Part shown: positions 41,189 to 54,048 of the stretch, piece after piece | How positions within the stretch are numbered: position 1 is the stretch's first letter | Layout of the letters: each line of letters begins with the position of its first letter | From: Acidobacteriota bacterium | GTDB taxonomy: Bacteria; Acidobacteriota; Thermoanaerobaculia; Thermoanaerobaculales; Sulfomarinibacteraceae | DNA length: 64,000 nt | NCBI GenBank assembly: GCA_013152895.1 | Contig: JAADFN010000181.1 | Coordinates: forward strand, 1,143-65,142 | Reading direction: 5' to 3' | Notes under the pieces: generated by a model | What the model was told of the DNA's origin: nothing | Database searches by the model: none | The model's input: the letters and a program-made list of their open reading frames with translations, nothing else | Made by a program: the position numbers and the translations under genes

Positions 41189-42829
41189 TCAGGGAGCGAC
41201 GGCCAGGGTTCGTGCAGGAGCGGGGAGCCGGCCGATATGCACCTTCTGGGCCCTGGTGCGCCCGTCCGGCCAGCGGATGGTCAACGTGTGGTCGCCGGAG
41301 GGAACCTTGACCTTGATGAGCGGAAGCTTGCCAAGCTTCTTGCCGTCAAAGAACGCGGTAGCGCCTGCCGGAGCGCCGATGTCATAGACCACCGTAAGCT
41401 CTCCCACGTTCAGCAGGAGCGAGATGGTTTTCGTCCTCCACGTCACGTTCCTGTCAAACGATCTCGCGCCAAACCCGGGGAGGGACAGGGTGAACCGGTG
41501 CCGCCCCTGGGAGAGCCGGAGCTTTTTGATCTGAACCCGCCGTCTTCCGATCCGCTTTCCATCGATGCGAAGCATCGCTGGTGGGTCGATGAGCACGCGC
41601 ACCGAAACGGGTCCGCTCGGCGTGGGGGTGGCGGTTGGGGTCGGCGTCATGGTGGGCGTTGGTGTCGCGGATGGTGTCGGCGTCGGCGTCGGTGGAGGCG
41701 TCGGCGTTGGTGTCGGCGTCGGCGTCGGGATCCATGGAGCGCCCGCGGGTCCGAAGACGAAGGTTTGTGCGCGGGGAGAGAAGTACAGGAACCCCGCGGC
41801 GCCAGCGAGTAGCACGAGCATAACGATAAACAGGATCCAAGCGGGGCTCGAGCTTGAGACTTCGTTCATGGCCGGCTCGAGATGTTTGAGCGGGACGGAA
41901 TCGGGCGTTTCCATCCTGGCTGGAAGCGGCTCGGTCGAGGGGAGGTTGCTGGTCGTCCGTTTCTGTTTCATCGTGACGATGGCGTCACGGAGAATCGCGG
42001 GAGGATCGTGCTCCTCCGCGTCGAACGGCTCGACACGGCGAAGGGCCTCGGCAAGGTCGTTGGCCGAGGCAAAGCGTTCGTCCGGATCCTTGGCCAAACA
42101 CCTGAGGATGATGTCTTCCAGCGCCTGTGGACACCATGCAGCCCTGACCCGTGGCGGTTCGGGAACTTCATTGACGATCTTGTAGAGGATGTTGCTCAGG
42201 GAGTTTCCCTGGAAGGGAGAGACGCCCGTGATGAGCTCGTAGGCCACGGCTCCGACAGAGAACAGGTCCGAACGCCGGTCGAGGCCCGTCCCCTGAATCT
42301 GCTCAGGCGAAAGATATCCCGCGGTGCCAAGGGCGACACCGGTCTGCGTCAGGCGGCTGACGTCGCCGATCGACTTCGCAATCCCGAAATCCATGAGCTT
42401 GACGAGACCATCCTCCAGCACGTGGATGTTCGAGGGCTTGATGTCCCGGTGAATGACGCCGCGCGAGTGAGCGAACTCGAGGCCCTCGCAGACCTGGAGA
42501 AGCAGTGCGATGACGGCCAAGGGGTTCTCGTCGAACAGGTGCGCCCCCAGGAGCTCGTCGACGTCGTACCCGTTGAGGAGCTCCTGGACGAGGTACGGCA
42601 CCTCGTCCTCGATGCCGAAATCGAAAATGAGCGTGATGTTGGGATGGACGAGGTTCCCGACGAACTGGGCTTCCTTGAAGAACCTCTTCCGGATCTCGGG
42701 ATCGGGCGTCGCGCAGGTCTTGATGGCAACGTACCGCTTGATGAAGGGATCCCACGCCTTGTAGATGATGCCGAAGCCGCCCATGGCGATCTTGTCTCGG
42801 ATCTCGTACTTTCCGATGTGCTTCAGCAT
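41189..42829 (-). CDS. Ser/Thr protein kinase with a TM segment, a Pro-Thr linker and two PEGA-like extracytoplasmic domains
   Basis: Hanks motifs GGFGIIYKA, VAIK, HRDIKPSNI, DFGIA and GTAGYLSPE. TM segment WILFIVMLVLLAGAAGFLYF. PEGA-like motif VPSGDHTLTIRWPDG. Confidence 0.9.
   Translation of the reverse strand: MLKHIGKYEIRDKIAMGGFGIIYKAWDPFIKRYVAIKTCATPDPEIRKRFFKEAQFVGNLVHPNITLIFDFGIEDEVPYLVQELLNGYDVDELLGAHLFDENPLAVIALLLQVCEGLEFAHSRGVIHRDIKPSNIHVLEDGLVKLMDFGIAKSIGDVSRLTQTGVALGTAGYLSPEQIQGTGLDRRSDLFSVGAVAYELITGVSPFQGNSLSNILYKIVNEVPEPPRVRAAWCPQALEDIILRCLAKDPDERFASANDLAEALRRVEPFDAEEHDPPAILRDAIVTMKQKRTTSNLPSTEPLPARMETPDSVPLKHLEPAMNEVSSSSPAWILFIVMLVLLAGAAGFLYFSPRAQTFVFGPAGAPWIPTPTPTPTPTPPPTPTPTPSATPTPTMTPTPTATPTPSGPVSVRVLIDPPAMLRIDGKRIGRRRVQIKKLRLSQGRHRFTLSLPGFGARSFDRNVTWRTKTISLLLNVGELTVVYDIGAPAGATAFFDGKKLGKLPLIKVKVPSGDHTLTIRWPDGRTRAQKVHIGRLPAPARTLAVAP
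41620..41730 (-). repeat. Imperfect hexanucleotide (GGCGTC/GGTGTC)n tract encoding the (PT)n linker of the kinase
   Basis: Plus strand reads ...ggtgtcggcgtcggcgtcggtggaggcgtcggcgttggtgtcggcgtcggcgtcggg. It translates on the minus strand to PTPTPTPTPTPPPTPTPTPSATPTPTMTPTPTATPTP. Confidence 0.8.
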
Positions 42830-42945: not shown

Positions 42946-43650
42946 TCATGTCAGCCGGAGGCTGTCGAGCTCGATCGTCTGCTGCGTTTGCCGTACCTTG
43001 ATGATGGTACGGGGCGGATAGAACCCTCCGCGGAGGGTGGCGTTCGGGTAGGTGATCGAGCCGGGACCCAGCAGGACACCCGGGTTGAGGACCGTGTTAC
43101 AGCCCGTCTTGACGCCGTCGCCCAGGATGGCGCCGAACTTTCTCAAGCCGGTGTGGATCACCTCGCCACCGATGCGCATGGTGACCTCGCGGCCAACGTT
43201 CTTGACGTTCGAGAGGATGGTGCCGGCACCGAGATTGACATCCCGGCCGAGGATCGAGTCACCGACGTACGCCTGGTGGGGTGCCTTGGCGCCGGGGAAC
43301 AGGATGGCGCCCTTGACCTCGGTATGGGCGCCGACGAGCGATCCCTCTCCCAGGATCACGTGTTGACGGACGTATGCGCCGGTCCGGATCTGGGCGTTGG
43401 CCCCAATGATTGCGGGGCCGATGATCACGGCGCCGGGTTCGATGTGACACCCCTCGGCGATGTGGACCCGTGAGCCGAGGATGTGGACCCCTTCGGGCAG
43501 GTTGATCTGGATCGACCAGTCCTCCCACGCGTCGAGGTAGGTGGCAAGCTGGGCGCCGAGGGCGGACCAGGCAGGTTGACCCGCCGCGAAGATGCGGGCA
43601 TGCAGCCAGCCCTCGAGGGAGAAGAATGTGCCGGGCGAAAAATCCTGCAT
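42946..43650 (-). CDS. Left-handed beta-helix (hexapeptide-repeat) transferase, GlmU C-terminal-like
   Basis: The ATG at 43650 lies 6 nt after GGAGG and overlaps the upstream TGA. Repeated [LIV]G..[AV].I hexapeptides (IGPAIIGANAQIRTGAYV..., LGRDVNLGAGTILSN). Confidence 0.7.
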   Translation of the reverse strand: MQDFSPGTFFSLEGWLHARIFAAGQPAWSALGAQLATYLDAWEDWSIQINLPEGVHILGSRVHIAEGCHIEPGAVIIGPAIIGANAQIRTGAYVRQHVILGEGSLVGAHTEVKGAILFPGAKAPHQAYVGDSILGRDVNLGAGTILSNVKNVGREVTMRIGGEVIHTGLRKFGAILGDGVKTGCNTVLNPGVLLGPGSITYPNATLRGGFYPPRTIIKVRQTQQTIELDSLRLT

Positions 43651-44879
43651 CACGTACCTCCTCGCGTATCACCGGTCCGCCGGACGACCACGACCGTCTG
43701 GTCGTCCTCCAGCGGCCGGTTTTCACTGAACGATGATACGGCGTCGAAGATCGTGCCGATGATCTTCGACGCCGGCATGTCGCCCAGTCCCCCGACCAGC
43801 TTTTCGAGACGCGCCACGGAGAACTCCTCGTCGTTGCCCGGGTGGTGGGCCTCGGTGATTCCGTCGGTGTACAGAACGAAGAAGTCGCCCGGCGCCATGT
43901 GAAAGAGGTCAAAGCAGTACCGGCTATCCGGCATCGGGCCGAGAATCATGCCCCCCGTGCTGAGCTCCTCGATCGTTCCGGTCTTTCTGACGAGGAGACC
44001 GGGGGGATGCCCCGCGTTGCAGTACACGACGCCGCCGCCGACCTGCAGCTCTGCGAGGAAGAGCGACACGAACTTCGTCGCCAGCCTGCTCCGGTGGATG
44101 ATGCTGTTGAGCCGCTCAAGCGTCCTGGTGATCTTGAACTCCCGCGAGAGTCCCATTCTCAAGCCGGTGTAGACGTCTCTGACCTGCAGCGCGGCGGGCA
44201 ACCCGTGGCCCGTTGCATCGGCGATGACGACGTTGACGGTCATGTCGGTCAGGGTGATGAAATCGTAGAAATCTCCACCGACGACCTCGGCGGGAATTGT
44301 GCGGGCCGCCATGTCGAAACCTTCGTACTTGGGAATTCGGCTTGGAAGGATCGATTCTTGAATACGGCGGGCCTCTTCCAGGATCTCGTACATCCGTTCC
44401 TCGCGAAGCTTCTGGTTGATGGCAAGCCGCACGATATTGAGGATCGCGATGAGGTCTTCCTGGGCCGAGCTGGCCGGGGCGACGTCGAACGAGAGTGCAT
44501 ACCTCCTGTCCGCGACCATGATCGCGGCAAAATGATCCCGCGTCCCGATCTCGGATTCGAGCGAGGCGTCCAGGCCGGTGTCCGAAAGCGACATGCTGAC
44601 GCAGCCCTCGTCGTACAGACGCTCAAAAGGATGGTAATCGGTGGGGATCCGGAGCCCGAGCGGCGCCCTCGTCACCGTGCCAAACGTGCCGACGAGCTCG
44701 TAGTTCCCGAAATCATCCCGGGCGTAAATGCGTCCCCCCGTGATGCCAAGATCGTCGGAAAAGCTTTCGACGAGGAACTGGGCGGTCTGCCGGATCGTCT
44801 CGAGCGGCGTGGAGGCGTTGGCTATGGTCTCCAGAGCGCGTTCGATTCGGCGGAAAAGTGAAACCGGGCGGCGCGGCAT
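43650..44879 (-). CDS. GAF-domain PP2C-type (SpoIIE/RsbU-like) phosphatase
   Basis: C-terminal PPM motifs GGDFYDF, IADATGHG and LYTDGITEA. The N-terminal ~170 aa are GAF-like. Confidence 0.8.
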   Translation of the reverse strand: MPRRPVSLFRRIERALETIANASTPLETIRQTAQFLVESFSDDLGITGGRIYARDDFGNYELVGTFGTVTRAPLGLRIPTDYHPFERLYDEGCVSMSLSDTGLDASLESEIGTRDHFAAIMVADRRYALSFDVAPASSAQEDLIAILNIVRLAINQKLREERMYEILEEARRIQESILPSRIPKYEGFDMAARTIPAEVVGGDFYDFITLTDMTVNVVIADATGHGLPAALQVRDVYTGLRMGLSREFKITRTLERLNSIIHRSRLATKFVSLFLAELQVGGGVVYCNAGHPPGLLVRKTGTIEELSTGGMILGPMPDSRYCFDLFHMAPGDFFVLYTDGITEAHHPGNDEEFSVARLEKLVGGLGDMPASKIIGTIFDAVSSFSENRPLEDDQTVVVVRRTGDTRGGT

Positions 44880-45055
44880 GCCGGAATAATGTCACGGGTT
44901 TTGCGTTTGCACAAGACGGTGGCCGGGGAATATAGCCGATGGGTATCCCTCGCCACGACCGGAATCCAAAACAGCCCGGGAAAGCTCTGGGGGCGAGCCT
45001 CAACGAGCTTGTGTACAATTGTGCCCCGGCGAGCTCCTTCGCCTTGGAGGTCTTG

Positions 45056-45538
45056 GTGAAAGCCCTTATCGGAACGAGCGTATTGATCGTGATGGGCGCT
45101 GTGATGGCGCTGACAACGGCCGGATGCCACCGGGGCATCTCCGAAGAATCGGCGCCTCCCGTGCTTGCGTCCCACAGTGAGGGAAGCGTGGACTGGACGA
45201 GAAGCTGGGACGCTGCGGTCAAAAAGGCGCGGTCGAAGAATAGAACGATCCTGATCGACTTTTATGCCGATTGGTGCATCTGGTGCCGGCGGCTCGATGC
45301 GACCACCTACCGCGATCCCAAGGTCGTGGCATTCCTGACTGATCGCGTGGTAGCCACGAAGCTGAACGTCGACAAAAGAGAGGGCCGCAGCCTGTCCACC
45401 AAGTACCACGTTGACGGGCTCCCGACCATCCTGCTCCTGTCTGCGGACGGCCGCGAGCTCGGAAGGATCCCCGGTTACATGCCCGCCGGACAGTTCCTCG
45501 ACCGCCTAAACCAGATTCTCGGAACGGCCTCCAGGTAA
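45056..45538 (+). CDS. Thioredoxin-fold lipoprotein (DsbD-gamma / thioredoxin_7-like)
   Basis: The GTG at 45056 lies 6 nt after GGAGG. Lipobox ALTTAGC. Redox motif FYADWCIWCRRLD. Confidence 0.7.
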   Translation: MKALIGTSVLIVMGAVMALTTAGCHRGISEESAPPVLASHSEGSVDWTRSWDAAVKKARSKNRTILIDFYADWCIWCRRLDATTYRDPKVVAFLTDRVVATKLNVDKREGRSLSTKYHVDGLPTILLLSADGRELGRIPGYMPAGQFLDRLNQILGTASR

Positions 45539-45552
45539 GATCCCGGGGGATC
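45539..45552. other. Perfect 14-nt palindrome GATCCC-GG-GGGATC between the convergent stop codons
   Basis: Read directly at 45539..45552, between TAA (45536-45538) and the minus-strand TGA (45551-45553). It could act as a bidirectional hairpin. There is no U tract. Confidence 0.25.
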
Positions 45553-45970
45553 AACTGGAAGAGCGGGCGGGCTGGGTGAAGATCTCGGCGAAGCTGGTAT
45601 CTTCTGACAGCAGGGCGGGGCAGTCGCGAGCCGTGAGCCATGCGTGGTAGAGCCTGGTATTGCCGGCCTTCTTGATGCCGAGGTGGAGCTCCGGCTCGAG
45701 GCCGCAGCGGGACCAGAGGTCGAGGAGAATGAGTGAGCGCTTGAGGCATCGTCCCATGTGACGTGGGGGAAGGAACGAAGCGGTACGAGAGACGAGCGCA
45801 CCGGCGACAACGGGATCACGGAGAGGACGTGGGAGGGGAGAGACGCCGGAAAGCCACGCAGGAAGCTCGTCGAGGCCGTGCCGGCGGTAGCCGAAGGCGA
45901 CGCGAGCGGCGGCGAGCCCGACCCACGGGAGCAGGCAAAGCGCGCGAACCGCATTCCTTCTCATGCTCAT
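45551..45970 (-). CDS. Lasso-peptide B2-type transglutaminase-like cysteine protease (Transglut_core3-like)
   Basis: The ATG at 45970 is in an ATGA overlap with the upstream stop. MGRCLKRSLILLDLWSRCGLEPELHLGI...RLYHAWLTARD matches the Cys...His...Asp layout of lasso B2 proteins. 139 aa. Confidence 0.7.
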   Translation of the reverse strand: MSMRRNAVRALCLLPWVGLAAARVAFGYRRHGLDELPAWLSGVSPLPRPLRDPVVAGALVSRTASFLPPRHMGRCLKRSLILLDLWSRCGLEPELHLGIKKAGNTRLYHAWLTARDCPALLSEDTSFAEIFTQPARSSS

Positions 45971-47085
45971 GCCCGGCGTTTCACAACCTGTTCGAGGGCC
46001 TCGGCATACGCGCACGCTGCGCTTGAGGGACCCAGGATATCGCCATCTTCGACCAGCGCCTGCGCGTGGCACCGGCCGCAGTACGCAAGCCTCGAACATG
46101 TGGCGCAACCGCGAAGGTCCTGGCGCCGGATCTTGCGGAGCTTCGCAAGCCACGGCGACGTCTCCCAGATCTCCCGAAAGCTCATCTCGTTGATATTTCC
46201 CGATGAAGCAGGAAGGACATTGCACGCCAACACGTCTCCAGAAGGGGTAATGTTGGCGTACCGCACGCCCGCAGCGCAGAGTGGCCCGTCGCCGGCTGGT
46301 TGTTCGGCGTCATCGATCTCGCACCCGGTCTCCGGACCACCCCTGCCCAGCTGCACGGCATCTTCCGGGGCGAGGCGGAGCTTCAGCGGATCGGTGTTTC
46401 CATCCTTCCGGGCGAAGATTTTCGTATAGACCTTCGCCGGAACGTCGAGCTCCCCGGCAAGCTCGGGGACCGAGCTGCCACCATCGGGATTGAGAGTGGA
46501 GAGAGGAACGGTGAGCTCGACGGGGACGCCGCGCTCCCGTAACCGTGTGATGGCCGCGCGCACGGCCCTGAACGATCCCGGGATCGATGTGACGGCCTCG
46601 AAGACTGCTGGATCGCCGCTGTGGAAGCTGATCTCCGTCTGGAGGCCGAGCTCGGCGATACGATCGGCAGTCGGCTCATCGATCAGGGCGCCATTGGTGA
46701 GCAGCATGACCTGGAAGCCCAGGCTCCTCGCGTGCCTGGCGATCAGCGCCCAGTCTTTTCTCAGAAGCGGCTCGCCGCCCGTAAGCGCGAGGAAGAGCGT
46801 TCCCATGTCTGCGAGCTCATCCAGGAGGCGCATCAGACGTTCGGTTGAAACGCCGTTGGGAGCGTTGAAGTCCGGGATGTAGCAGTGACGGCAGCGGAAG
46901 TTGCAACGCCATGTCAGCTCGATGGAGATATCGAGCGGAATCAGCTCGCGAGCGGCCCGCTGGACCAGGCTGCGGAAGTGCGGCATGCCCTTGGTTTCGA
47001 TGCCCAGGTTTTCGGCCGTTCGCACGGGCACATGGCCCTGAGAGGCGCCCTCGTCGAAACGGTTCGTGCCGCGCGGGTCGCTCAT
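45967..47085 (-). CDS. Radical SAM/SPASM-domain peptide-modifying enzyme
   Basis: CNFRCRHC (CX3CX2C) and LTGGEPLL. SPASM-like C-terminus CAAGVRYANITPSGDVLAC...CATCSRLAYCGRC. The start at 47085 is in an ATGA overlap. An alternative start is 46986 (MPHFRSL). Confidence 0.85.
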   Translation of the reverse strand: MSDPRGTNRFDEGASQGHVPVRTAENLGIETKGMPHFRSLVQRAARELIPLDISIELTWRCNFRCRHCYIPDFNAPNGVSTERLMRLLDELADMGTLFLALTGGEPLLRKDWALIARHARSLGFQVMLLTNGALIDEPTADRIAELGLQTEISFHSGDPAVFEAVTSIPGSFRAVRAAITRLRERGVPVELTVPLSTLNPDGGSSVPELAGELDVPAKVYTKIFARKDGNTDPLKLRLAPEDAVQLGRGGPETGCEIDDAEQPAGDGPLCAAGVRYANITPSGDVLACNVLPASSGNINEMSFREIWETSPWLAKLRKIRRQDLRGCATCSRLAYCGRCHAQALVEDGDILGPSSAACAYAEALEQVVKRRA

Positions 47086-47819
47086 GCCGGGGCCGTGATC
47101 AGGTCCCATACCGACGGATCGGGGCGGAAGGCGAGGCGCCACACCGGGACCGAGGAGGCCAGCGCGCTCAACGTTTCAAAAGCGTCCGCAAATGCGGAGG
47201 CTTGCTCGACCGGCCAGTAGAAGTGACGCCGAAGCTCCCGGACGGCGCTGGGGGCGCCGAGCCGTGTCCGCACGTTTTCAGGACCGTGCTCCAACACAAA
47301 AACTCCGGCGAGCGGCGCATGGCCGGGACGTGCACGCCAGTAGGGGAGCGAGACGCCCTCGAAACCGCGAGTTGAAGCACGAACGAGGGCGAGCTCATCG
47401 CAGAGCGCGCGATCGCCACACAGGGCCGCAAGAGTGCTCTTGCCGCTCCCAGAGACGCCGCAACAAAGGTACCCGCGGTTTGCGTCCGTCAGGAGAGCCG
47501 CGTGGGCAACGATGGCCGGGGCGAGGAACTGTGGCAGCAGGTTTCTCAGGATACTGTCAACGTGATCGAGCGTGGCAGCCGTCCGCAGGGTGACGACACG
47601 GCCCGTCCCGTCCCACTCGACGGCCGGGCCGGCCTCTCCGGGTCGGTAAACGAGGATGGCGTCGGGCCCCGACGACGAGCTGCCGAATCCTTCGAACCGT
47701 CTTTTCAAGGCCCCGATTCGTGCCTCGTCGCCGGTACGAAACTCGATGGCAGCCCCGCCCATGTCAACTCGATGTGAGAACGTGCCCGGTAATTCGTCGG
47801 TGGGAAGGGGGGCGTTCAT
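47082..47819 (-). CDS. HPr-kinase-C-terminal-like P-loop protein (lasso-type precursor kinase candidate)
   Basis: Walker A CCGVSGSGKSTLAALCGDRALCDELALV resembles the HprK P-loop and following DD region. ATGA overlaps at both ends. Confidence 0.7.
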   Translation of the reverse strand: MNAPLPTDELPGTFSHRVDMGGAAIEFRTGDEARIGALKRRFEGFGSSSSGPDAILVYRPGEAGPAVEWDGTGRVVTLRTAATLDHVDSILRNLLPQFLAPAIVAHAALLTDANRGYLCCGVSGSGKSTLAALCGDRALCDELALVRASTRGFEGVSLPYWRARPGHAPLAGVFVLEHGPENVRTRLGAPSAVRELRRHFYWPVEQASAFADAFETLSALASSVPVWRLAFRPDPSVWDLITAPA

Positions 47820-48220
47820 GAATTCTGAGGATTTGTATTGCAGAGGTCACTGACGCCCGGTTGGAGAGCACAGGTTCCGGCAAACTGCCGAATCTCCTCC
47901 CGCCACTCGATCCGCGGTGCGGCCGCGCTCTCGGTGGTGTTCGGATCGGTTGGAAGACGACCCTCGAATTCGATCAGGCCTTCGCCGGCCAGATCCTTGA
48001 GAAAGGCGGCAAGATGTGATCGTGGAGTTTCGCCAACCCCGGCTTCGCTCAGCAGCAACCGCTCGAGATCTTCGAATTCGGCAGGCGTGGCGAGGGCGTT
48101 CCACACTCTGCCTGCAGTGACATTGAGCCCGTACATCTGCTTCCGTGACAAGTGGACAATGACCGTTTCTCCGCCGACATTCCTCCAGGCAAGGCCCTCC
48201 GCCCTCCGGATCCTTTCCAT
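47816..48220 (-). CDS. PqqD-family RiPP recognition element (lasso B1-like) with a 47-aa C-terminal tail
   Basis: The ATG at 48220 lies 6 nt after GGAGGGAGGA. LAWRNVGGETVIVHLSRKQMYGLNVTAGRVWNAL...LKDLAGEGLIE is PqqD-like. The tail is TDPNTTESAAAPRIEWREEIRQFAGTCALQPGVSDLCNTNPQNS. Confidence 0.7.
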   Translation of the reverse strand: MERIRRAEGLAWRNVGGETVIVHLSRKQMYGLNVTAGRVWNALATPAEFEDLERLLLSEAGVGETPRSHLAAFLKDLAGEGLIEFEGRLPTDPNTTESAAAPRIEWREEIRQFAGTCALQPGVSDLCNTNPQNS

Positions 48221-48286
48221 CCTCGATCCTCCCTCCATCTTCAAGCTCTACTCGTTATGCGTCTGCCCATCCCCCCGGCGAGGGCG

Positions 48287-48841
48287 TTACTGCACGATAA
48301 AAAAGTACGTCGGGTCGGGACAGGGCTTTCGCATCCCATCCATCTGGATCTCAACTTTCCATCGCCCGTAGAGCGAGCTCGTCACGATACTCGATCCCGC
48401 GACTGGCAACCGGACATTTATTGAATCGTAGAGAACATTGTTGTATTTCAGCGCCTGTGGCGCCTTGATCCGGACGGGATACGGGTACCCGGCCAGCCGT
48501 CGGCTTCCCATCGGCGTGTGTCCTTTTTGCGGCGCCACGGGGACGTTGAGCGTCTGGTACAGGTGGCCGCGCGGCGTATAGACCTTGAGCGTCACCACGT
48601 GGTTCTTGTCGAGCTTGCCCTGGAACAACACGTGAAACACGAGATCCGTCGTCCGTGTGGCCGAGAAACGATTCCGGCTGAGCTGCGCCGGGGTATCCAC
48701 GGCGGTGACGATGACCTGGGGGCAGGTCGATGCCGGTGGCCCAACGTAGCCGTGAACCTGCGTCTGAGCGAAGAGCGGGACACCGGAAAGAACCATGACG
48801 CCTGTCACAACAAGCGCAGAGCGAAGTGAACGGTATTTCAT
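48287..48841 (-). CDS. Secreted protein of unknown function (184 aa)
   Basis: Signal peptide MKYRSLRSALVVTGVMVLSGVPLFAQ. It starts 9 nt downstream of the giant gene's stop. Beta-rich sequence, no recognised motif. Confidence 0.6.
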   Translation of the reverse strand: MKYRSLRSALVVTGVMVLSGVPLFAQTQVHGYVGPPASTCPQVIVTAVDTPAQLSRNRFSATRTTDLVFHVLFQGKLDKNHVVTLKVYTPRGHLYQTLNVPVAPQKGHTPMGSRRLAGYPYPVRIKAPQALKYNNVLYDSINVRLPVAGSSIVTSSLYGRWKVEIQMDGMRKPCPDPTYFFIVQ

Positions 48842-48850
48842 GGCGCCTCC

Positions 48851-51800
48851 TTACTGAAGCGGTACCTGGACGCCATACACGGCGCCCGATTCAGAGCCGA
48901 CATAGAGTGTGCTGTTGACGTGGTCGTATGCGGGACTGCCGATCGTCGCCGAGCCATCTCCGAGCGTGACCGACGTGACGACGCTTCCATCCGCTGCGCT
49001 GAGCTGGTAGAGCTTGCCGTCGCTCGATCCGGCGTAGAGATAGGTGGGGTCGGCTCCGAAAACATGTAGAGGAATCGACGGTGAGGCGACACTGGTCTGT
49101 TTCCAGCCGAGGCTGGCGGAGCTTCCATCGTCCGTGATCGCCCAGATGTCGTTCGTCGTCGAGAAGTAGAGCCGACGCGGCGTCGACTGCGTGAACTGCG
49201 GAATGACATAGCCCTTGACCGGTCCATCGTCCGTGGCGTATGACCAGATCGTGTGCCCGTCAGCCGGATCGATCGCGTACACGATGCCGGAGTTGTTCCC
49301 GACATAGATCCGCCCGCCGTACAGGATCGGTGCGCCATCGATGTCACCGAGCGCCACCGACCAGACCTTCGTCAAGCTCGTTCCGTCGAAGCTCAGGCAC
49401 CACAAGGTGTCCTTCGATCCACCGGTCGAGCTTTCGCGGCTGGCGAAGTAGAGCCGGTTCGAGGCGTAGTCCACGCTGGCCGCCGACGAGATGATGCCAA
49501 TCCCGTTTGAACCACCGCCGTTATTGAAGCTGGTGATCGTGCTCCCGTCCGACGGATCGAGCATGTACATCGCGTTGTCCGCCGTTGCATCACGGGATCC
49601 GGCGAAGAGGACGCTCCAGCTTCCCCCAAAGTCGGTAAACATCCCGGCGGGGGACGCCAGCAGGATGTTTGAGAGCTGTGCGCTTTGCCAGAGGGTCACG
49701 CCGGTCTCGGCATTGACGGCGTAGACGTGGCCGTCCTCGGAACCGAGAAACACGACCATGGACGCGCCCGAGACGACGCTGGTCGGCACGACCGGCGGCC
49801 GGGCTTCTGCCGGGCCGTTCATCGCCATCGGCTTCCACGAATAGCTGCCGGTCCGCGGCCATGTGCCCCCGGAATCCCCGGGGTTCATCCCGTGCAGGAC
49901 ACGATCGTTCGAGACGGCCCACGTCGCGCCCGTCCCGATCGCCCCGGGATACACGCCGTTCGGCGCCAGCGCAGTGGCCTCCGAGTTGTAGACCCACTTG
50001 ACCTTGCCCGACGTGTCGAACGGTCTGGCTGTGACCGTCTTGGCGGACGAGAAGTTACCCGCGCCATCGTCCACGAAGGCGGTGTAATAGTACGTCGTTC
50101 CGTTGGTCAGCCCCGTGTCGGTGTAGCTGTCGTACGCTCCGAGGCTTCCGGCCTGGCTGACGATCGGTGTACACGTTGACTCGTCGGGGTAGGCCGACGT
50201 GTCGCGGCAGATTTTCGTCGATCCGTACACTCCGGTGGACGGGTTGACCCACTCGAGCGTGACCTGGCCGGAAGTCGCCCGGGCCGTGAAGCTCTGGAGC
50301 GGATCCGACGTCCCGGAGCTGCAGGTCGAGCCGGACAAGTTGGTTACCGAGACATCATCGATCAGCCATCCCACATAGGTGTTGTAATAGGAGTCCACTG
50401 AATCAAAGGTAAACCGAATGATCATATCGCTGGGAGATGATGGTGGAGATAGCGCGATGTCTCCCGACGCGGTCCACGCTGCGCCTGACGCATCGGCACA
50501 ATCCTTGTACCAGACCTGGTTCCAGGTCGTTCCTCCATCGTACGAGACGTCTACCTTCGTGATGTCATAGCCTCCGCTCGAATAACTTTCGACTTGCCGC
50601 CAGTATTCGAAGCTCAAGAGTGACGACGATGTGACGCCGGAGATTGTCGGCGACGTCAACGTGCCGGTGGTTGTTGCCCCGGTGTCGTAGTCGCAGCTCG
50701 AGTCCTGGCCGTAGTACCACGCATGCGTTCCCGACGTGGCCGGGGGACTGACACAACCGGTGCTGTTGACCTCGTGCCACAGCCCTCCGCTCGCGGTCCA
50801 TCCCGTCGATCCCGATTCGAAGTCTTCGGTCCAGGTGGTGTTGCCGGCCACTCCGCTCTTTTCGATCGTGTTGGCATCCTCGAAGCCGCCGTTGCAGGCA
50901 CCGCCATGCCCGACCGACGAGTCTTCGGCCCGAACGATGTAGTAGTACGTCGTGCCTCCGGCGACCGTCGTGTCTTCGTAATAGAGGTTCGTCACGCAGC
51001 TCGCCATGAGGGTGGACGAGTCAGGCGTGAAGCCGGACGTCGTGGATCGGTAGATGTTGTAGACGATCGAGGTACCGGTGGCGCAGTTCGACGTCGCGGC
51101 GTTCCACTCGAGCTTGAGGCCGCAGGTGCTGCCGGCCATTACGGTCACCGATTGGAGACCGTCGAACGTCGGTGGCGCACCCACGTTGTCGACGGCGGAT
51201 GCCGTGGTTCCGCCGTCGGTGGCGCACCCGTACCCGTTCGTCGCCTGGATACCGTAACTGTACGTTGTGCCGTTCGTGCCGGTCGTGTCGACGTACGAGG
51301 TCGTCGTTTCGGAAACATCGCTGGCGATCGCGCTGCCGCCGCGCAGGACGGAAAAGCTCCGGGTTCCAGATCCCCCGTCGTTCCAGGTCGCGGGCGTGTT
51401 CCATGTCAGGACGACGCCTGTGTCGTCGCATGCGTCACGGTCGGTTGCGGTCTGGATCCCGCCGAACGCGAACGAGTGGTCCGCGTCGGCCCCCGAGGTT
51501 CCCGCCGACCATGCGCTCGTGTTGCTGCAATTGTCGTTGACCGCCTGGACCGTGTAGGTGTGCGTTGCCGCATCGCCAGGCGTGTCCGTGTAGCTCGTTG
51601 CCGTGACCCCGGTCGCCACCGTGGTGCCATCGCGAGCCACGTTGTACGAGGTGGCGTTCGCCGCGGCGCTCCACGATACGCCGATACCGCTTGCAGCGCA
51701 CACCGAGATATCGCTCACGCTCGGTGCTGATGGCGTTGCCGGGAAGGCATCGGCGTCCGAAGCGGATGTCGCCGCCGACCACGCACCGGTGCAGGTCGAG

Positions 51801-54004
51801 TTGGTGCCGCGCACCTGGTAGGTATGGGAGGCCGAGTCGCCCGGGTTGTACGAGTACGGACTGCTCACGTTGGTGATCGTTGTCGTTCCGTCGATCAGCA
51901 GGTCGTACGCCGTCGCGCCGGTGACGGAGGTCCAACTGACCGTGACGCCTGTCTGTGCGCACTGGTCATCATCGCTGACGGACGGCGCCGCCGGCGTTGC
52001 GGGGGAGTCGTCTGCATCCGTGAAGCTCTGGGCGGCGCTGTCGGTGTAGCAGGTGTCGTCGAGCGCGCGAATAACGTAGCTATGAGAATTGGTATCGCCG
52101 GGGTTGTACAGGTCTCCCGAGGCGTAGTTGCTGACCGCAAGTGCGCCGTCAACGTAAAGATCGTGGCTCGTTGCGCCTGAGCCTGCCGTGTAGTTGACGT
52201 GTACGCCGTCCTGGGCGCACGCGCTGTTGTCTGTAATCGAGGTGATGACCGGCTGCCCCGGATCGGTGCATACGGCGCAGTCGGAGTACTTGAACGATGC
52301 GATGCGGGTGTGCCACTGGAAGTCACCGGTCGCGGTGTAATACTCCTGGGTGTACCAGAACGTGCAGTCATCGGAAGGGTCAATGCTCATCGAGGAGTAA
52401 TCACCCCATCGGCTGTGACCATCCTGCGAGCCGGTACCGTCCACAATCGACGATTCTGCCTGGGTCATCTCGTTCAGCGTATCGCCAGCGAGCCTTCCCG
52501 TGTAGTAAATCGAGGGGTACACGGATGAGCTGGACGCGCTGTATCCAAGCGCCATGTTCCCCATGTGATCCATCGCGATCGATCCCATCCAACGTGAAGT
52601 ACCGTCAGGTTCGTACGTTCCTGACTGGTAGATCGTGGGTGTTCCACCGGGATCCCTGATCTCATACCACCTGATGGCACTGTCGGCAGACGAGCCCGTG
52701 ACCGAGTGATTGACCACGAGCGACTCGTGATCGCCCGGGAAGTTCCGGTAGGCGAGGCGGTACATCATCCGGTCTGCCAGCGAATCCAGCTGCTGGGTGA
52801 CGCCCGGTTGTGCGATGCACGTGCCACCACTGCACGCTTCACTGAAGCTTGCGACGGTGAGTGTGGTCGGCCCCGTGAAGGTAGAATTGCTCGAATTGCT
52901 CCAGTCGATATGAAGCTTCCAGAAGAGCAGGCTCTGGCCGTCGCCTCCTTTTGCGACGACGTATTCCGGCGACCCCGAAGGCGGCTCGTTCGGTCCCTCC
53001 ATGTCGGCCGGCAGCAGGCCACCGTAGCTCGAATAGGGCCCAAAGCACTGGGTCACGGCGTTGGCATCGCCGTTGATCATCGCGGTACGGTCGTACGCGC
53101 AGATTTCGCCTCCGTCCCAGGTTTGGCCGTTGGCAAACATGTTGTACGTAATGTAGTACCCGTCCGGCCAGACTCCCATCTTGGGATAGTCGTTGAAGTC
53201 GGAGAAAGTATACTCGTAGAGGTACCAGGATCCGGTGGGATCGGACGTCTGGGAAACAGCGATACATTGATAATAGTTTGTCTTGTCATCGGTTTGCGAG
53301 ACCGCGAACTGCGTCATGATCCACCGGTTCGCCATTTGATCGTACTCGACGATCGGGTCGCCATCGTTGTCGTCGGCGCACTCGTTACCCGAGCCGAGGC
53401 TGCTCCAGAGGGTGTTCCCAGCGGCAGGTCCGTATGCGACGCTGGCATCGGACTTGTTGAAAATCGTGAACATCGTATTCGTCCACTGAACGTAGTAGTT
53501 CAGGCCGACGTCACCCTCAGTGTCTGGTGGTTCACTTGCGATCGTATAGCCGGACAGGCCATCCCCGCCACCTTCGAAGTTCAAGATCGGCGCCGGCATC
53601 AGCCTGGTACCCGGGGTCGTCTGGTCCGTGTAATGCAACTTGGAAGGTGGTGCTCCACCACCTTTGACCGCGTTCGGTGGCATGTTGATGCCCTCGGGAA
53701 GCTCGTGTTCCGGCATGAGGCGGATTTTCTTCGCAACAGGGAGCGGCTTGATGGTGCGCAGCGGGGGAGTCACGGCAAACGCGACGGGCCTGTAGACCGT
53801 GGCACCCTGCTTTTCCGGGGGGCTTGAGCCGTGCCACTGTGCATTGACGACCGGGACCGCGCCGAGCAGCAAAAGCCCTGGAAGGACGGCTAGCCCGAGC
53901 CATCGGCGAACCTGCGAACCCATCGCATGAGCGTCCGGATTCGTCTGAGGTCCCCCAGGCGCATGATTATCCCTCGACCCCCGTGTATTCTTGGATTCCA
54001 ACAT
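48851..54004 (-). CDS. Giant secreted multidomain protein (1717 aa): N-terminal unknown domain, tandem Fn3/Ig-like modules, a jelly-roll (MAM-like) domain and a C-terminal PQQ/BamB-like beta-propeller
   Basis: The ATG at 54004 follows GGAGGGG. Signal region SQVRRWLGLAVLPGLLLLGAVPVVNAQ. Propeller blades VYAVNAETGVTLWQS, VYAIDPADGHTIWSY and LYQLSAADGSVVTS. Jelly-roll region WTEDFESGSTGWTASGGLWH...GWLIDDVSV. Confidence 0.85.
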   Translation of the reverse strand: MLESKNTRGSRDNHAPGGPQTNPDAHAMGSQVRRWLGLAVLPGLLLLGAVPVVNAQWHGSSPPEKQGATVYRPVAFAVTPPLRTIKPLPVAKKIRLMPEHELPEGINMPPNAVKGGGAPPSKLHYTDQTTPGTRLMPAPILNFEGGGDGLSGYTIASEPPDTEGDVGLNYYVQWTNTMFTIFNKSDASVAYGPAAGNTLWSSLGSGNECADDNDGDPIVEYDQMANRWIMTQFAVSQTDDKTNYYQCIAVSQTSDPTGSWYLYEYTFSDFNDYPKMGVWPDGYYITYNMFANGQTWDGGEICAYDRTAMINGDANAVTQCFGPYSSYGGLLPADMEGPNEPPSGSPEYVVAKGGDGQSLLFWKLHIDWSNSSNSTFTGPTTLTVASFSEACSGGTCIAQPGVTQQLDSLADRMMYRLAYRNFPGDHESLVVNHSVTGSSADSAIRWYEIRDPGGTPTIYQSGTYEPDGTSRWMGSIAMDHMGNMALGYSASSSSVYPSIYYTGRLAGDTLNEMTQAESSIVDGTGSQDGHSRWGDYSSMSIDPSDDCTFWYTQEYYTATGDFQWHTRIASFKYSDCAVCTDPGQPVITSITDNSACAQDGVHVNYTAGSGATSHDLYVDGALAVSNYASGDLYNPGDTNSHSYVIRALDDTCYTDSAAQSFTDADDSPATPAAPSVSDDDQCAQTGVTVSWTSVTGATAYDLLIDGTTTITNVSSPYSYNPGDSASHTYQVRGTNSTCTGAWSAATSASDADAFPATPSAPSVSDISVCAASGIGVSWSAAANATSYNVARDGTTVATGVTATSYTDTPGDAATHTYTVQAVNDNCSNTSAWSAGTSGADADHSFAFGGIQTATDRDACDDTGVVLTWNTPATWNDGGSGTRSFSVLRGGSAIASDVSETTTSYVDTTGTNGTTYSYGIQATNGYGCATDGGTTASAVDNVGAPPTFDGLQSVTVMAGSTCGLKLEWNAATSNCATGTSIVYNIYRSTTSGFTPDSSTLMASCVTNLYYEDTTVAGGTTYYYIVRAEDSSVGHGGACNGGFEDANTIEKSGVAGNTTWTEDFESGSTGWTASGGLWHEVNSTGCVSPPATSGTHAWYYGQDSSCDYDTGATTTGTLTSPTISGVTSSSLLSFEYWRQVESYSSGGYDITKVDVSYDGGTTWNQVWYKDCADASGAAWTASGDIALSPPSSPSDMIIRFTFDSVDSYYNTYVGWLIDDVSVTNLSGSTCSSGTSDPLQSFTARATSGQVTLEWVNPSTGVYGSTKICRDTSAYPDESTCTPIVSQAGSLGAYDSYTDTGLTNGTTYYYTAFVDDGAGNFSSAKTVTARPFDTSGKVKWVYNSEATALAPNGVYPGAIGTGATWAVSNDRVLHGMNPGDSGGTWPRTGSYSWKPMAMNGPAEARPPVVPTSVVSGASMVVFLGSEDGHVYAVNAETGVTLWQSAQLSNILLASPAGMFTDFGGSWSVLFAGSRDATADNAMYMLDPSDGSTITSFNNGGGSNGIGIISSAASVDYASNRLYFASRESSTGGSKDTLWCLSFDGTSLTKVWSVALGDIDGAPILYGGRIYVGNNSGIVYAIDPADGHTIWSYATDDGPVKGYVIPQFTQSTPRRLYFSTTNDIWAITDDGSSASLGWKQTSVASPSIPLHVFGADPTYLYAGSSDGKLYQLSAADGSVVTSVTLGDGSATIGSPAYDHVNSTLYVGSESGAVYGVQVPLQ
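50851..52261 (-). repeat. Protein-level tandem repeat: about five Fn3/Ig-like modules inside the giant CDS
   Basis: Recurring pattern C(A)..G(V).V.W....GATsYdL..DG......S.YsY.PGD...HTY.V.a.N..C (for example CAQTGVTVSWTSVTGATAYDLLIDG..., CAASGIGVSWSAAANATSYNVARDG...). It spans residues ~590-1060 counted from the track ORF. Confidence 0.7.
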
Positions 54005-54048
54005 GTTCCCCTCCAGTCCCAAAACCAAGGCAAGTCTCTCTTATCATC

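Follow-up and report, generated by a model that had tools for sequence, protein, structure and literature searches.

The DNA analysed here (the window) is a 64,000-nucleotide stretch of an Acidobacteriota contig, and the feature of interest lies on its minus strand, in an operon whose usual gene order, with some variants among homologous loci, is a secreted 184-aa protein (p184), an RRE-tail protein, an HprK/ScmC-like P-loop protein, a PqqE-like radical SAM/SPASM enzyme and a lasso-B2-type protease. The PqqD/RRE-tail gene occupies the minus-strand ORF at 47816-48244, in which an ATG at 48220, preceded by GGAGGGAGG, gives a protein of 134 aa. Residues 1-84 (47969-48220) make up the RRE, a PqqD-fold domain (Pfam PF05402, E 8.8e-10). 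The Pfam match stops at residue 83 of 134, the final fold element in the AlphaFold2 model comprises residues 83-85, and 47819-47959 translates exactly to RLPTDPNTTESAAAPRIEWREEIRQFAGTCALQPGVSDLCNTNPQNS, so that the end of the fold and the 47-aa tail behind it are as first described from the sequence in an earlier note. Beyond the RRE come a Pro/Ala/Glu-rich variable linker (residues 85-101, 47918-47968), a leader-like strand motif, P-R-I-E-W-R-E-E-I-R-Q-F-A-G-T (residues 102-116, 47873-47917), delimited by its conservation and by a strand in the AlphaFold2 model, and a core-like C-terminal peptide, CALQPGVSDLCNTNPQNS (residues 117-134, 47819-47872), recognized by a family pattern and by predicted disorder.

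The earlier count of A or T in the third position of 13 of the final 25 codons is correct; the GC3 of that segment, 12/25, compares with 0.78 in adjacent genes (binomial P about 0.001), and a value as low is seen in only 0.5% of the 25-codon windows of neighbouring genes. Third positions were, however, overstated as "overwhelmingly G/C", with a background of 78% and only 64% over the RRE-tail gene as a whole. The low tail GC3 is not a family feature, as the value in homologs is only slightly lowered (0.76 vs 0.81).

Operon and neighbouring genes

The junctions between the RRE-tail and ScmC-like genes, the ScmC-like and radical SAM genes, and the radical SAM and B2 genes are each an ATGA overlap, the gap from p184 to the RRE-tail gene is 66 nt, and the homologous loci are equally compact, their genes overlapping or lying 23-81 nt apart. 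These distances bear out the earlier remark that a separate precursor gene would not fit: neither in the window nor in the homologous loci does the conserved module leave space for a conventional short precursor ORF.

The HprK/ScmC-like P-loop protein (245 aa, 47082-47819, minus strand), whose start overlaps the RRE-tail stop, matches NCBIfam TIGR04352 HprK_rel_A at E 5e-6 and ScmC at E 0.0026, both under the curated cut-offs; homologs of it have a precomputed PF27840 ScmC match, and the Walker A motif G-x-S-G-x-G-K-S-T is kept in 26 of them. The radical SAM/SPASM enzyme (373 aa from an ATG overlapping the ScmC stop, 45967-47085, minus strand) is recognized by Pfam Radical_SAM (E 2e-23) and SPASM (E 7e-9) and has no RRE domain of its own according to Pfam. 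Among PDB sequences it matches PqqE best (6c8v, E 4e-17), followed by SkfB; its CX3CX2C motif and SPASM cysteines are kept in homologs, and in most loci long enough to include it the gene is coupled to the RRE within the operon. The last gene encodes a transglutaminase-like cysteine protease of the lasso-B2 type (139 aa, 45551-45970, minus strand; Pfam Transglut_core3 E 1.4e-9, above the Pfam cut-off), which scores 30.6 bits against a cut-off of 33 with NCBIfam lasso_biosyn_B2 (NF033537); its motifs G-x-C-L-x-R-S-L and H-A-W, with the catalytic Cys and His, are invariant in 12 homologs. As for the RRE family itself, the lasso_PqqD profile NF033536 matches 33 of 78 members, under its cut-off, and the ScmD profile matches 20 of the 78 weakly. 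The cluster has no conserved exporter.

Upstream of the RRE-tail gene, p184 (48287-48841, minus strand) is a secreted domain with no Pfam or NCBIfam match, two invariant Cys and a hydrophobic, signal-peptide-like N-terminus, read by eye from the sequence rather than with a prediction tool. Where upstream sequence is available, p184 immediately precedes the RRE-tail gene in the majority of loci, whichever of the two tail types (described below) they have. Next to it, at 48851-54028 on the minus strand, is the gene for a giant secreted protein of 1725 aa with a C-terminal BamB/PQQ_2-type beta-propeller (Pfam PQQ_2 E 1e-14, and Beta-prop_ACSF4). A homologous giant gene is found upstream in loci L001, L029 and L030; in L036, L041 and L049 p184 and the giant protein are joined in one fusion, the joined giant gene being homologous in L036 and L049. 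Both proteins have signal-peptide-like N-terminal segments and no leader-like motif. Clustering of the neighbours in 36 loci gave only three recurrent families, namely p184, the giant protein and a sulfatase. A role for the radical SAM enzyme as a sulfatase maturase (anSME) was considered and rejected; the sulfatase adjoins in only 3 loci, and the tail has no C/S-x-P-x-R motif.

The tail family

A family set of 142 representatives was assembled at E<=1e-10, and 154 sequences were inspected for the tail, which is present in about 140 clusters (50% identity) and in 31/31 metagenome loci; these loci came from a DNA-pattern scan of metagenome contigs, and all are true members. The bacteria that carry it are of high GC content (58-74%). 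About 123 of the 154 inspected sequences have the pattern W-x10-C-x9-C-x6-7-end. Of 123 representatives, 106 have a Cys-Cys spacing of 10 and 81 end in Ser; counted otherwise, a terminal Ser ends 73 of 103 two-Cys tails (71%) and about 31 of the 36 tails read in loci.

Throughout the family the tail runs from a hypervariable Pro/Ala/Glu linker through a conserved strand to a conserved end that is predicted to be disordered. The strand consensus is P-x-[IV]-x-W-x-E-E, with P102, I/V104, W106 and E108 near-invariant; the C-terminal family pattern is C-[AG]-F-x-P-G-Q-x3-C-[ND]-Q-x-P-x1-2-S, or in a broader form C-[AG]-F-x-P-G-Q-x3-C-x3-P-x1-2-S. Mean pairwise identity is 0.10 for the gap-rich linker, which also varies in length, 0.42 for the strand motif, 0.41 for the C-terminal peptide and 0.31 for the RRE; the two tail Cys had served to select sequences, and hence the figure for the C-terminal 18 residues was also computed without them, giving 0.34. 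By these alignments the C-terminal part is at least as conserved as the RRE, with hypervariability confined to the linker, and in some subfamilies the end is near-invariant (TCAFLPGQNPLCNQVPFS) though the RRE falls to about 40% identity. The picture of a conserved RRE with a hypervariable tail, which the earlier note had proposed to look for among homologs, fails in that form.

A second tail type keeps the strand motif and the same p184/ScmC context but has a single Cys, in the C-terminal peptide Q-x-S-P-P-x2-I-G-N-P-x-C-x2; it ends in ...NPQC-x-x, with no terminal Ser, and its loci retain the ScmC-like gene. RRE residue 40 tracks the tail type, being W in 143/143 two-Cys tails and L/F in the SPP tails. 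One constant strand with two C-terminal types looks like the usual pattern of constant leader and alternative cores. In the tail-less relative L050, which was checked for a split-off precursor, the spacer holds only a (GAGTAC)n repeat and no bounded ORF. A search of 5.8 billion sequences with a tail-only profile gave no match; so short a motif cannot reach useful E-values against a set of that size, and the result is not evidence that stand-alone motif peptides are absent.

Predicted fold and docking

The closest PDB fold for the RRE is that of the lasso B1 protein TbiB1 with bound leader (5v1v, TM 0.83). AlphaFold2 gives a beta-strand at residues 104-109 with a block pLDDT of 96, and the same strand, with a pLDDT of 97, in a homolog of about 40% identity. 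The C-terminal peptide has a pLDDT of only 54-61 in the window protein and 46-48 in the homolog, and the segment is therefore predicted to be disordered. AlphaFold2 places the strand on the RRE, where it would presumably pair with the leader-binding edge (beta3/alpha3), though the program may here just be reproducing a learned RRE-leader geometry. Covariation (MI/APC) is dominated by the subfamily split, and pairs from the strand to alpha3/beta3 are weak, with ranks of only 52-84 for D76/E80-R107 and F73/N33-P102.

Lasso-like features of the tail

When +1 is set at residue 118, the tail has an invariant W at -12, I/V at -14, Ser/Thr at -2 in 64 of 103 representatives (62%) and Gly/Ala/Ser/Cys at +1 in 85%. 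The published lasso leader motif is YxxPxL at -17 to -12 plus Thr(-2), with Ile/Val(-2) exceptions, and B1 is required by both kinase and B2 (PMC10368454); the P-x-[IV]-x-W of the RRE-tail motif matches YxxPxL in register and differs from it in residues. The cleavage after ...AGTC put forward in the earlier note is consistent with a B1/B2 register at the family level, but two of the residues by which it had been recognized are not general: with the cut taken after the first Cys, Thr(-2) is present in 21 of 103 representatives (20%), and an acidic residue at core positions 7-9, such as the Asp8 of the window, in 23 of 103 (22%). Position 125 is Pro in 36, Gly in 15 and Asp in 11 of 92 members.

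HprK homologs are known to phosphorylate lasso precursors on the C-terminal Ser (PMC8498205). The link drawn in the earlier note between a kinase and the terminal Ser is weakened: 73 of 103 two-Cys tails end in Ser, but none of the single-Cys tails does, and since these still keep the ScmC-like gene, the role proposed for the kinase is uncertain.

A proposed substrate built into the RRE protein, and its alternatives

The reading that we favour, with a probability of about 0.5, is that the RRE-tail protein would be a self-contained precursor, combining RRE, leader and core, of an undescribed, non-lasso radical-SAM peptide pathway. The proposal of the earlier note that a precursor-like tail is fused in cis to its own RRE gains support from the family-wide presence of the tail, the lack of a separate precursor gene, the layout of linker, strand and Cys-containing end, and the coupled enzymes; neither an RRE-precursor fusion nor this gene set turned up in the literature searched. 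From the architecture, the conservation, the gene linkage, the intact motifs and the predicted docking we infer the chemical steps and the cleavage as follows. The P-x-[IV]-x-W-x-E-E strand would fold back, by way of the flexible linker, into the leader-binding groove of its own RRE, and this docking would present the disordered, usually Ser-ended C-x9-C peptide to the translationally coupled enzymes. The PqqE-like radical SAM/SPASM enzyme would then modify the peptide, most plausibly by a Cys-based cross-link or by some other radical modification, the HprK/ScmC-like protein might phosphorylate its Ser or otherwise spend ATP on it, and the B2-type protease would free a peptide of about 17-18 residues, the cut falling after Cys117 if the lasso register applies. 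A tail-derived product is not a lasso peptide, and conservation of the core throughout a diverse family makes a conserved cofactor-, signal- or ligand-type peptide likelier than a variable antibiotic.

Several features speak for such a built-in substrate: the three-part layout is typical of leader plus core, the RRE is structurally nearest to a lasso B1 protein with its leader bound, and the partner enzymes fit, in that the radical SAM enzyme has no RRE and the catalytic motifs of all three enzymes are conserved. The lasso register of the tail, the second tail type with its change at RRE residue 40, and the Ser that ends 71% of two-Cys tails count on the same side. Against it, a C-terminal peptide so conserved might equally be structural or serve to dock proteins, a leader with an invariant Cys at -1 would be out of the ordinary, no exporter is conserved, and p184 and the giant protein, the tightest neighbours, are left outside the model. 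To spend one 117-aa protein on each 17-aa peptide is costly, though borosins do likewise.

The tail had first been taken for a lasso-type precursor, to be cut by B2 after AGTC, closed into an Ala1-Asp8 macrolactam and phosphorylated on its terminal Ser. This reading has in its favour a B1-like RRE beside a B2-like protease, an HprK-like gene as in paeninodin-type clusters, and in the window the residues Thr(-2), Ala1, Asp8 and the terminal Ser, but it is already contradicted, and we regard it as very improbable. No Asn-synthetase-like cyclase was found in the operon genes or in the larger window ORFs scanned with Pfam, and neighbour clustering of the 36 homologous loci gave no recurrent extra family of the cyclase type beside p184, the giant protein and the sulfatase. 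The lasso rules are not conserved, Thr(-2) and the acidic residue being confined to the minorities given above and all three rules holding jointly in 2 of 103 members; and the pattern T-x-[GASC]-x5-7-[DE], present in the window tail, is by itself no better than chance because it also occurs in 13% of shuffles of the same 47 residues. What does go beyond chance is the family-wide conservation of the tail. That conservation also rules out the suggestion, which the low GC3 of the last 25 codons (12/25) might invite, that the tail is a read-through, a mis-called stop or a frameshift artefact of MAG assembly; the same frame and motif recur in independent NCBI, ENA, JGI and Logan assemblies, and the stop codon that ends the tail shares bases with the start of the gene behind it, a tight junction also seen in homologs, so that we give an artefact practically no weight.

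A more serious alternative, and the main rival, though less likely than a built-in substrate, is that the tail is a permanent extension of the RRE, its strand a pseudo-leader that fills or gates the groove and its Cys-containing end a dock for the radical SAM, ScmC-like or B2 protein or a binding site for a metal or Fe-S cluster, with the substrate encoded elsewhere, as an unlinked small gene, p184 or the giant protein. The conservation of the C-terminal 18 residues, which equals or exceeds that of the RRE and reaches the near-invariant TCAFLPGQNPLCNQVPFS in some subfamilies, is what one might expect of such a part, a pair of invariant Cys at a constant distance could well hold a metal or cluster, no neighbours are more consistent than p184 and the giant protein, which are at times fused together, and an exporter is not conserved. 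A groove blocked in cis would, however, bar other leaders, yet a catalytically intact B2-type protease is kept, and published B2 activity depends on leader-bound B1 (PMC10368454). p184 and the giant protein have signal-peptide-like N-termini and no leader-like motif; the C-terminal peptide is predicted to be disordered in two models, and two C-terminal types on one strand motif are more easily understood as alternative cores than as a single docking element.

If the tail is a built-in substrate, a broader proposal may be made tentatively, namely that the family represents a new RiPP class in which a single-use RRE, leader and core in one polypeptide would have its conserved C-x9-C peptide processed by the radical SAM/SPASM, HprK-like and B2 enzymes to a small conserved product, serving p184 and the beta-propeller as cofactor or ligand much as PQQ serves periplasmic quinoproteins; this could also account for further PqqD/radical-SAM cassettes that lack a recognized precursor, SynChlorMet among them. 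Genome mining for RiPPs presumes a small separate precursor gene beside the RRE, a premise that would fail for a widespread family whose RRE carries its own leader-like strand and core-like peptide. Such a family would make sense of orphan RRE/radical-SAM cassettes with no identifiable precursor, provide a natural design for cis-presentation, so far only engineered as leader-enzyme fusions, and point to a Cys-based radical SAM product conserved in high-GC, so far uncultured bacteria. Should the strand be a pseudo-leader instead, it would represent a new mode of RRE regulation.

Comparison with known systems

Relative to RRE-dependent radical SAM/SPASM RiPP pathways in general, the differing feature of this system is that no short precursor is separately encoded. 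With the split-B lasso systems that have an HPr-kinase homolog (paeninodin, pseudomycoidin, Bsf type) it shares a discrete TbiB1-like PqqD-fold RRE, a transglutaminase-like B2 with conserved Cys and His, an HprK-like P-loop protein, a hydrophobic anchor at -12/-14, a small +1 residue and a frequent terminal Ser. It differs from them in having no lasso cyclase, no conserved acidic ring acceptor and no ABC exporter; position -2, Thr in those systems, is here usually Ser, Ala or some other residue, the operon has a radical SAM/SPASM enzyme instead, and the precursor-like sequence lies inside the RRE protein rather than in a separate gene.

The pathways to PQQ (PqqD/PqqE) and mycofactocin (MftB/MftC) likewise place a discrete PqqD-family RRE beside a SPASM radical SAM enzyme and have a C-terminal target peptide that is conserved, not hypervariable, together with a dedicated peptidase; the secreted PQQ_2-type beta-propeller next to our operon recalls the quinoproteins that use PQQ, as an analogy only. 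In those pathways, however, the precursors PqqA and MftA are separate small genes and the target residues are Glu/Tyr and Val-Tyr, as against a Cys pair here, and the RRE-tail system has no homologs of PqqB/C or MftD/E/F, with NCBIfam scores far under the family cut-offs. The SynChlorMet (SCM) system, NCBIfam TIGR04248-TIGR04251, has in common with it an HprK-like ScmC relative, a PqqD relative and a SPASM radical SAM enzyme. The scores are nevertheless low (17.2 bits against a cut-off of 125 for ScmC, 88.7 against 400 for ScmE), each locus here has one radical SAM gene and not two, and the B2 protease and p184 are present; no precursor is known to have been identified for SCM in the TIGRFAMs descriptions.

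There is also a likeness to the borosins (OphMA-type), in which a folded biosynthetic protein carries the core in frame at its C-terminal end and is consumed together with it (PMC8429565). In these mostly fungal systems the fused partner is the modifying methyltransferase itself, whereas in the RRE-tail family it is only the RRE of about 85 aa, which has no catalytic domain, and the enzymes are separate proteins, so that the analogy is one of architecture only.

The RRE-tail gene and its operon

The window is part of an Acidobacteriota MAG (NOZ79557.1). The ORF of the RRE-tail protein -- a PqqD-fold protein with a C-terminal extension -- had been read on the minus strand at 47816-48244, and the translation agrees; the start is an ATG at 48220, with the Shine-Dalgarno sequence GGAGGGAGG ahead of it, giving 134 aa. 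The 47-aa tail quoted in the earlier note is the exact product of 47819-47959. The Pfam PqqD match spans residues 18-83, and the RRE fold ends at residues 83-85 in the AlphaFold2 model. Successive junctions between the genes for the RRE-tail protein, a ScmC-like protein, a radical SAM/SPASM enzyme and a lasso-type B2 protease show ATGA overlaps, the sole gap being the 66 nt between the gene for the secreted protein p184 and the RRE-tail gene; the operon is translationally coupled. The 13 A/T-ending codons counted among the last 25 are indeed there: GC3 in this stretch (47819-47893, minus strand) is 12/25 vs. 0.78 in neighbouring genes (P about 0.001), where 0.5% of 25-codon windows are equally low. 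Since the dip in the homologs is slight (0.76 vs. 0.81), no functional meaning has been assigned to it.

A degenerate DNA pattern matched 31 metagenome loci with GC contents of 58-74%, and 31/31 carry true members of the family. Where the loci are long enough, the usual order is p184, RRE-tail, ScmC-like, radical SAM/SPASM and B2; the radical SAM gene immediately follows the RRE-tail gene in L023, L033 and L039, the ScmC-like gene lies upstream in L038, and B2 directly follows the RRE-tail gene in L048. Conserved features include the B2 catalytic motifs (G-x-C-L-x-R-S-L and H-A-W), the Walker A of the ScmC-like protein, which is distantly related to HprK (TIGR04352, E 5e-6), and the CX3CX2C and SPASM cysteines of the radical SAM enzyme, which has no N-terminal RRE and finds its best solved-structure match in PqqE.

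Conservation and predicted structure of the tail

The tail is present in all six close homologs (6/6). When 1.84 billion representatives were searched with a profile, 142 proteins reached E<=1e-10, almost all of them 120-160 aa long and aligned over their full length. The ending W-x10-C-x9-C-x6-7 is found in about 123 of 154 inspected sequences; 106 of these 123 two-Cys tails have the exact Cys-Cys spacing, and 81 end in Ser. Column by column, the tail consists of a linker rich in Pro, Ala and Glu, at residues 85-101 (pairwise identity 0.10), a strand motif, P102-x-[IV]104-x-W106-x-E108-E (0.42), and a C-terminal peptide, C117-[AG]-F-x-P-G-Q-x3-C127-[ND]-Q-x-P131-x1-2-S (0.41), while the RRE domain of the same family stands at 0.31. 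In one subfamily TCAFLPGQNPLCNQVPFS is nearly invariant although the RRE domains share just about 40% identity. A second tail type, seen in at least 14 representatives (P0097, P0099, P0111, P0122, P0139, P0151 and others; loci L051 and L052), keeps the strand motif as P-x-[IV]-x-W-x-E but finishes with Q-x-S-P-P-x2-I-G-N-P-x-C-x2, which has one Cys and lacks the terminal Ser; its p184/ScmC context is unchanged. At RRE residue 40, 143/143 two-Cys members have Trp, and the second type has Leu or Phe.

One locus, L050, has a tail-less PqqD protein (P0131, 99 aa) flanked by ScmC-like and radical SAM/SPASM genes and followed by a 105-nt spacer of (GAGTAC)n hexamer repeats (L050:396-500). This spacer holds no bounded ORF, one frame giving EYEYVYEY..., and the locus may be degenerate or rearranged, or an assembly artefact.

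AlphaFold2, given a 78-sequence alignment, modelled the RRE fold plus a beta-strand at 104-109 (block pLDDT 96; mean pLDDT 86), with residues 111-134 at 54-61; P0050, modelled as a further target with about 40% identity and a longer linker, gave 97 for the strand and 46-48 for the C-terminus. The closest structure to the RRE part is the leader-bound lasso B1 protein TbiB1 (5v1v, TM 0.83), and from this sequence-based modelling we infer that strand 104-109 lies on the leader-binding edge of the RRE. Covariation toward that placement is weak (D76/E80-R107, F73/N33-P102).

A putative self-contained precursor

The reading preferred here, with a probability of roughly one half, is that the RRE-tail protein is a self-contained precursor. 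The tail strand would dock in cis on its own RRE; the Cys-containing peptide behind it, predicted to be disordered, would thereby be presented to the HprK-like protein, the B2 protease and the radical SAM enzyme, which lacks an RRE. In lasso leaders the B1/B2 geometry sets YxxPxL at -17 to -12 and Thr at -2 (PMC10368454); if kept, it would place cleavage after Cys117, the predicted site coinciding with the first cut proposed in the earlier note. Such a cut puts W106 at -12 and I104 at -14; 62% of members then have Ser/Thr at -2, and 85% have Gly/Ala/Ser/Cys at +1. In lasso systems, HprK homologs phosphorylate the precursor on its C-terminal Ser (PMC8498205), an activity that would be consistent with the frequent terminal Ser, though not with the single-Cys tails.

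That the tail is specifically a lasso-type precursor, as the note had proposed, now appears highly improbable: no lasso cyclase was detected in the operon, among the window ORFs scanned or as a recurrent neighbour in the homologous loci, an acidic acceptor is present in just 23 of 103 members and Thr(-2) in just 21, and the three lasso rules for the precursor sequence hold jointly in only 2/103. The lasso-like pattern of the window tail itself arises in 13% of same-residue shuffles. The main rival, less probable than the precursor reading but far more so than a lasso, is that the tail serves as a pseudo-leader or docking element, with the substrate encoded elsewhere; the high conservation of the "core" peptide speaks for this, as does the tie to p184 and its giant neighbour, which a self-contained precursor leaves unexplained.

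Neighbouring genes

p184 (window 48287-48841, minus strand; L001:1479-2033; L017:1288-1857; L051:805-1359; L052:1-483) is a secreted domain of about 184 aa with two invariant Cys and no match in Pfam or NCBIfam. In most loci with upstream sequence, for both tail types, it immediately precedes the RRE-tail gene (L015 is an exception); at L036:5194-11583, L049:6176-11281 and L041:926-1942 it forms the C-terminal end of a fusion with the giant protein. The giant secreted proteins (1400-2100 aa) contain a beta-propeller of the BamB/PQQ_2 type; in the window the gene (48851-54028, minus strand) precedes p184 by 9 nt.

Directly downstream of B2, L027:149-2386, L029:1-771 and L032:2867-5074 encode a sulfatase/TPR protein (about 740 aa). 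The formylglycine motif is C/S-x-P-x-R, and because the tail lacks it, no connection with the maturation of sulfatases is evident. Downstream of the window operon lie a thioredoxin-like protein (44939-45538, plus strand), a SpoIIE/PP2C phosphatase (43650-44879, minus) and a Ser/Thr kinase with a Pro/Thr-rich linker (41189-42829, minus). In L001 a metallo-beta-lactamase gene replaces the thioredoxin-like gene, which is thus probably outside the system; a SpoIIE gene recurs there, farther downstream. Upstream of the L017 cluster is a divergent PF14907 (NTP_transf_5) nucleotidyltransferase (L017:23-1186, minus strand); the pseudomycoidin lasso cluster has a kinase and a nucleotidyltransferase (PMC8498205), a likeness at the level of enzyme type.

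Comparison with known systems

The family is not covered by any NCBIfam model; among the curated models, lasso_PqqD, ScmD, ScmC, HprK_rel_A and lasso B2 come nearest, every score falling under its cut-off. Our literature search found no description of an RRE-precursor fusion or of this gene set, and a 2025 RRE survey goes no further than reporting that 21% of PF05402 proteins exceed discrete RRE length, without other annotation. The parts resemble those of the split-B, kinase-type lasso clusters, minus the cyclase. In borosins the core peptide is also fused to a biosynthetic protein (PMC8429565), but there the partner is the enzyme itself, whereas here it is the RRE. The RRE and radical SAM pair is comparable to PqqD/PqqE, and the beta-propeller beside it is reminiscent, by analogy, of PQQ and its quinoproteins.
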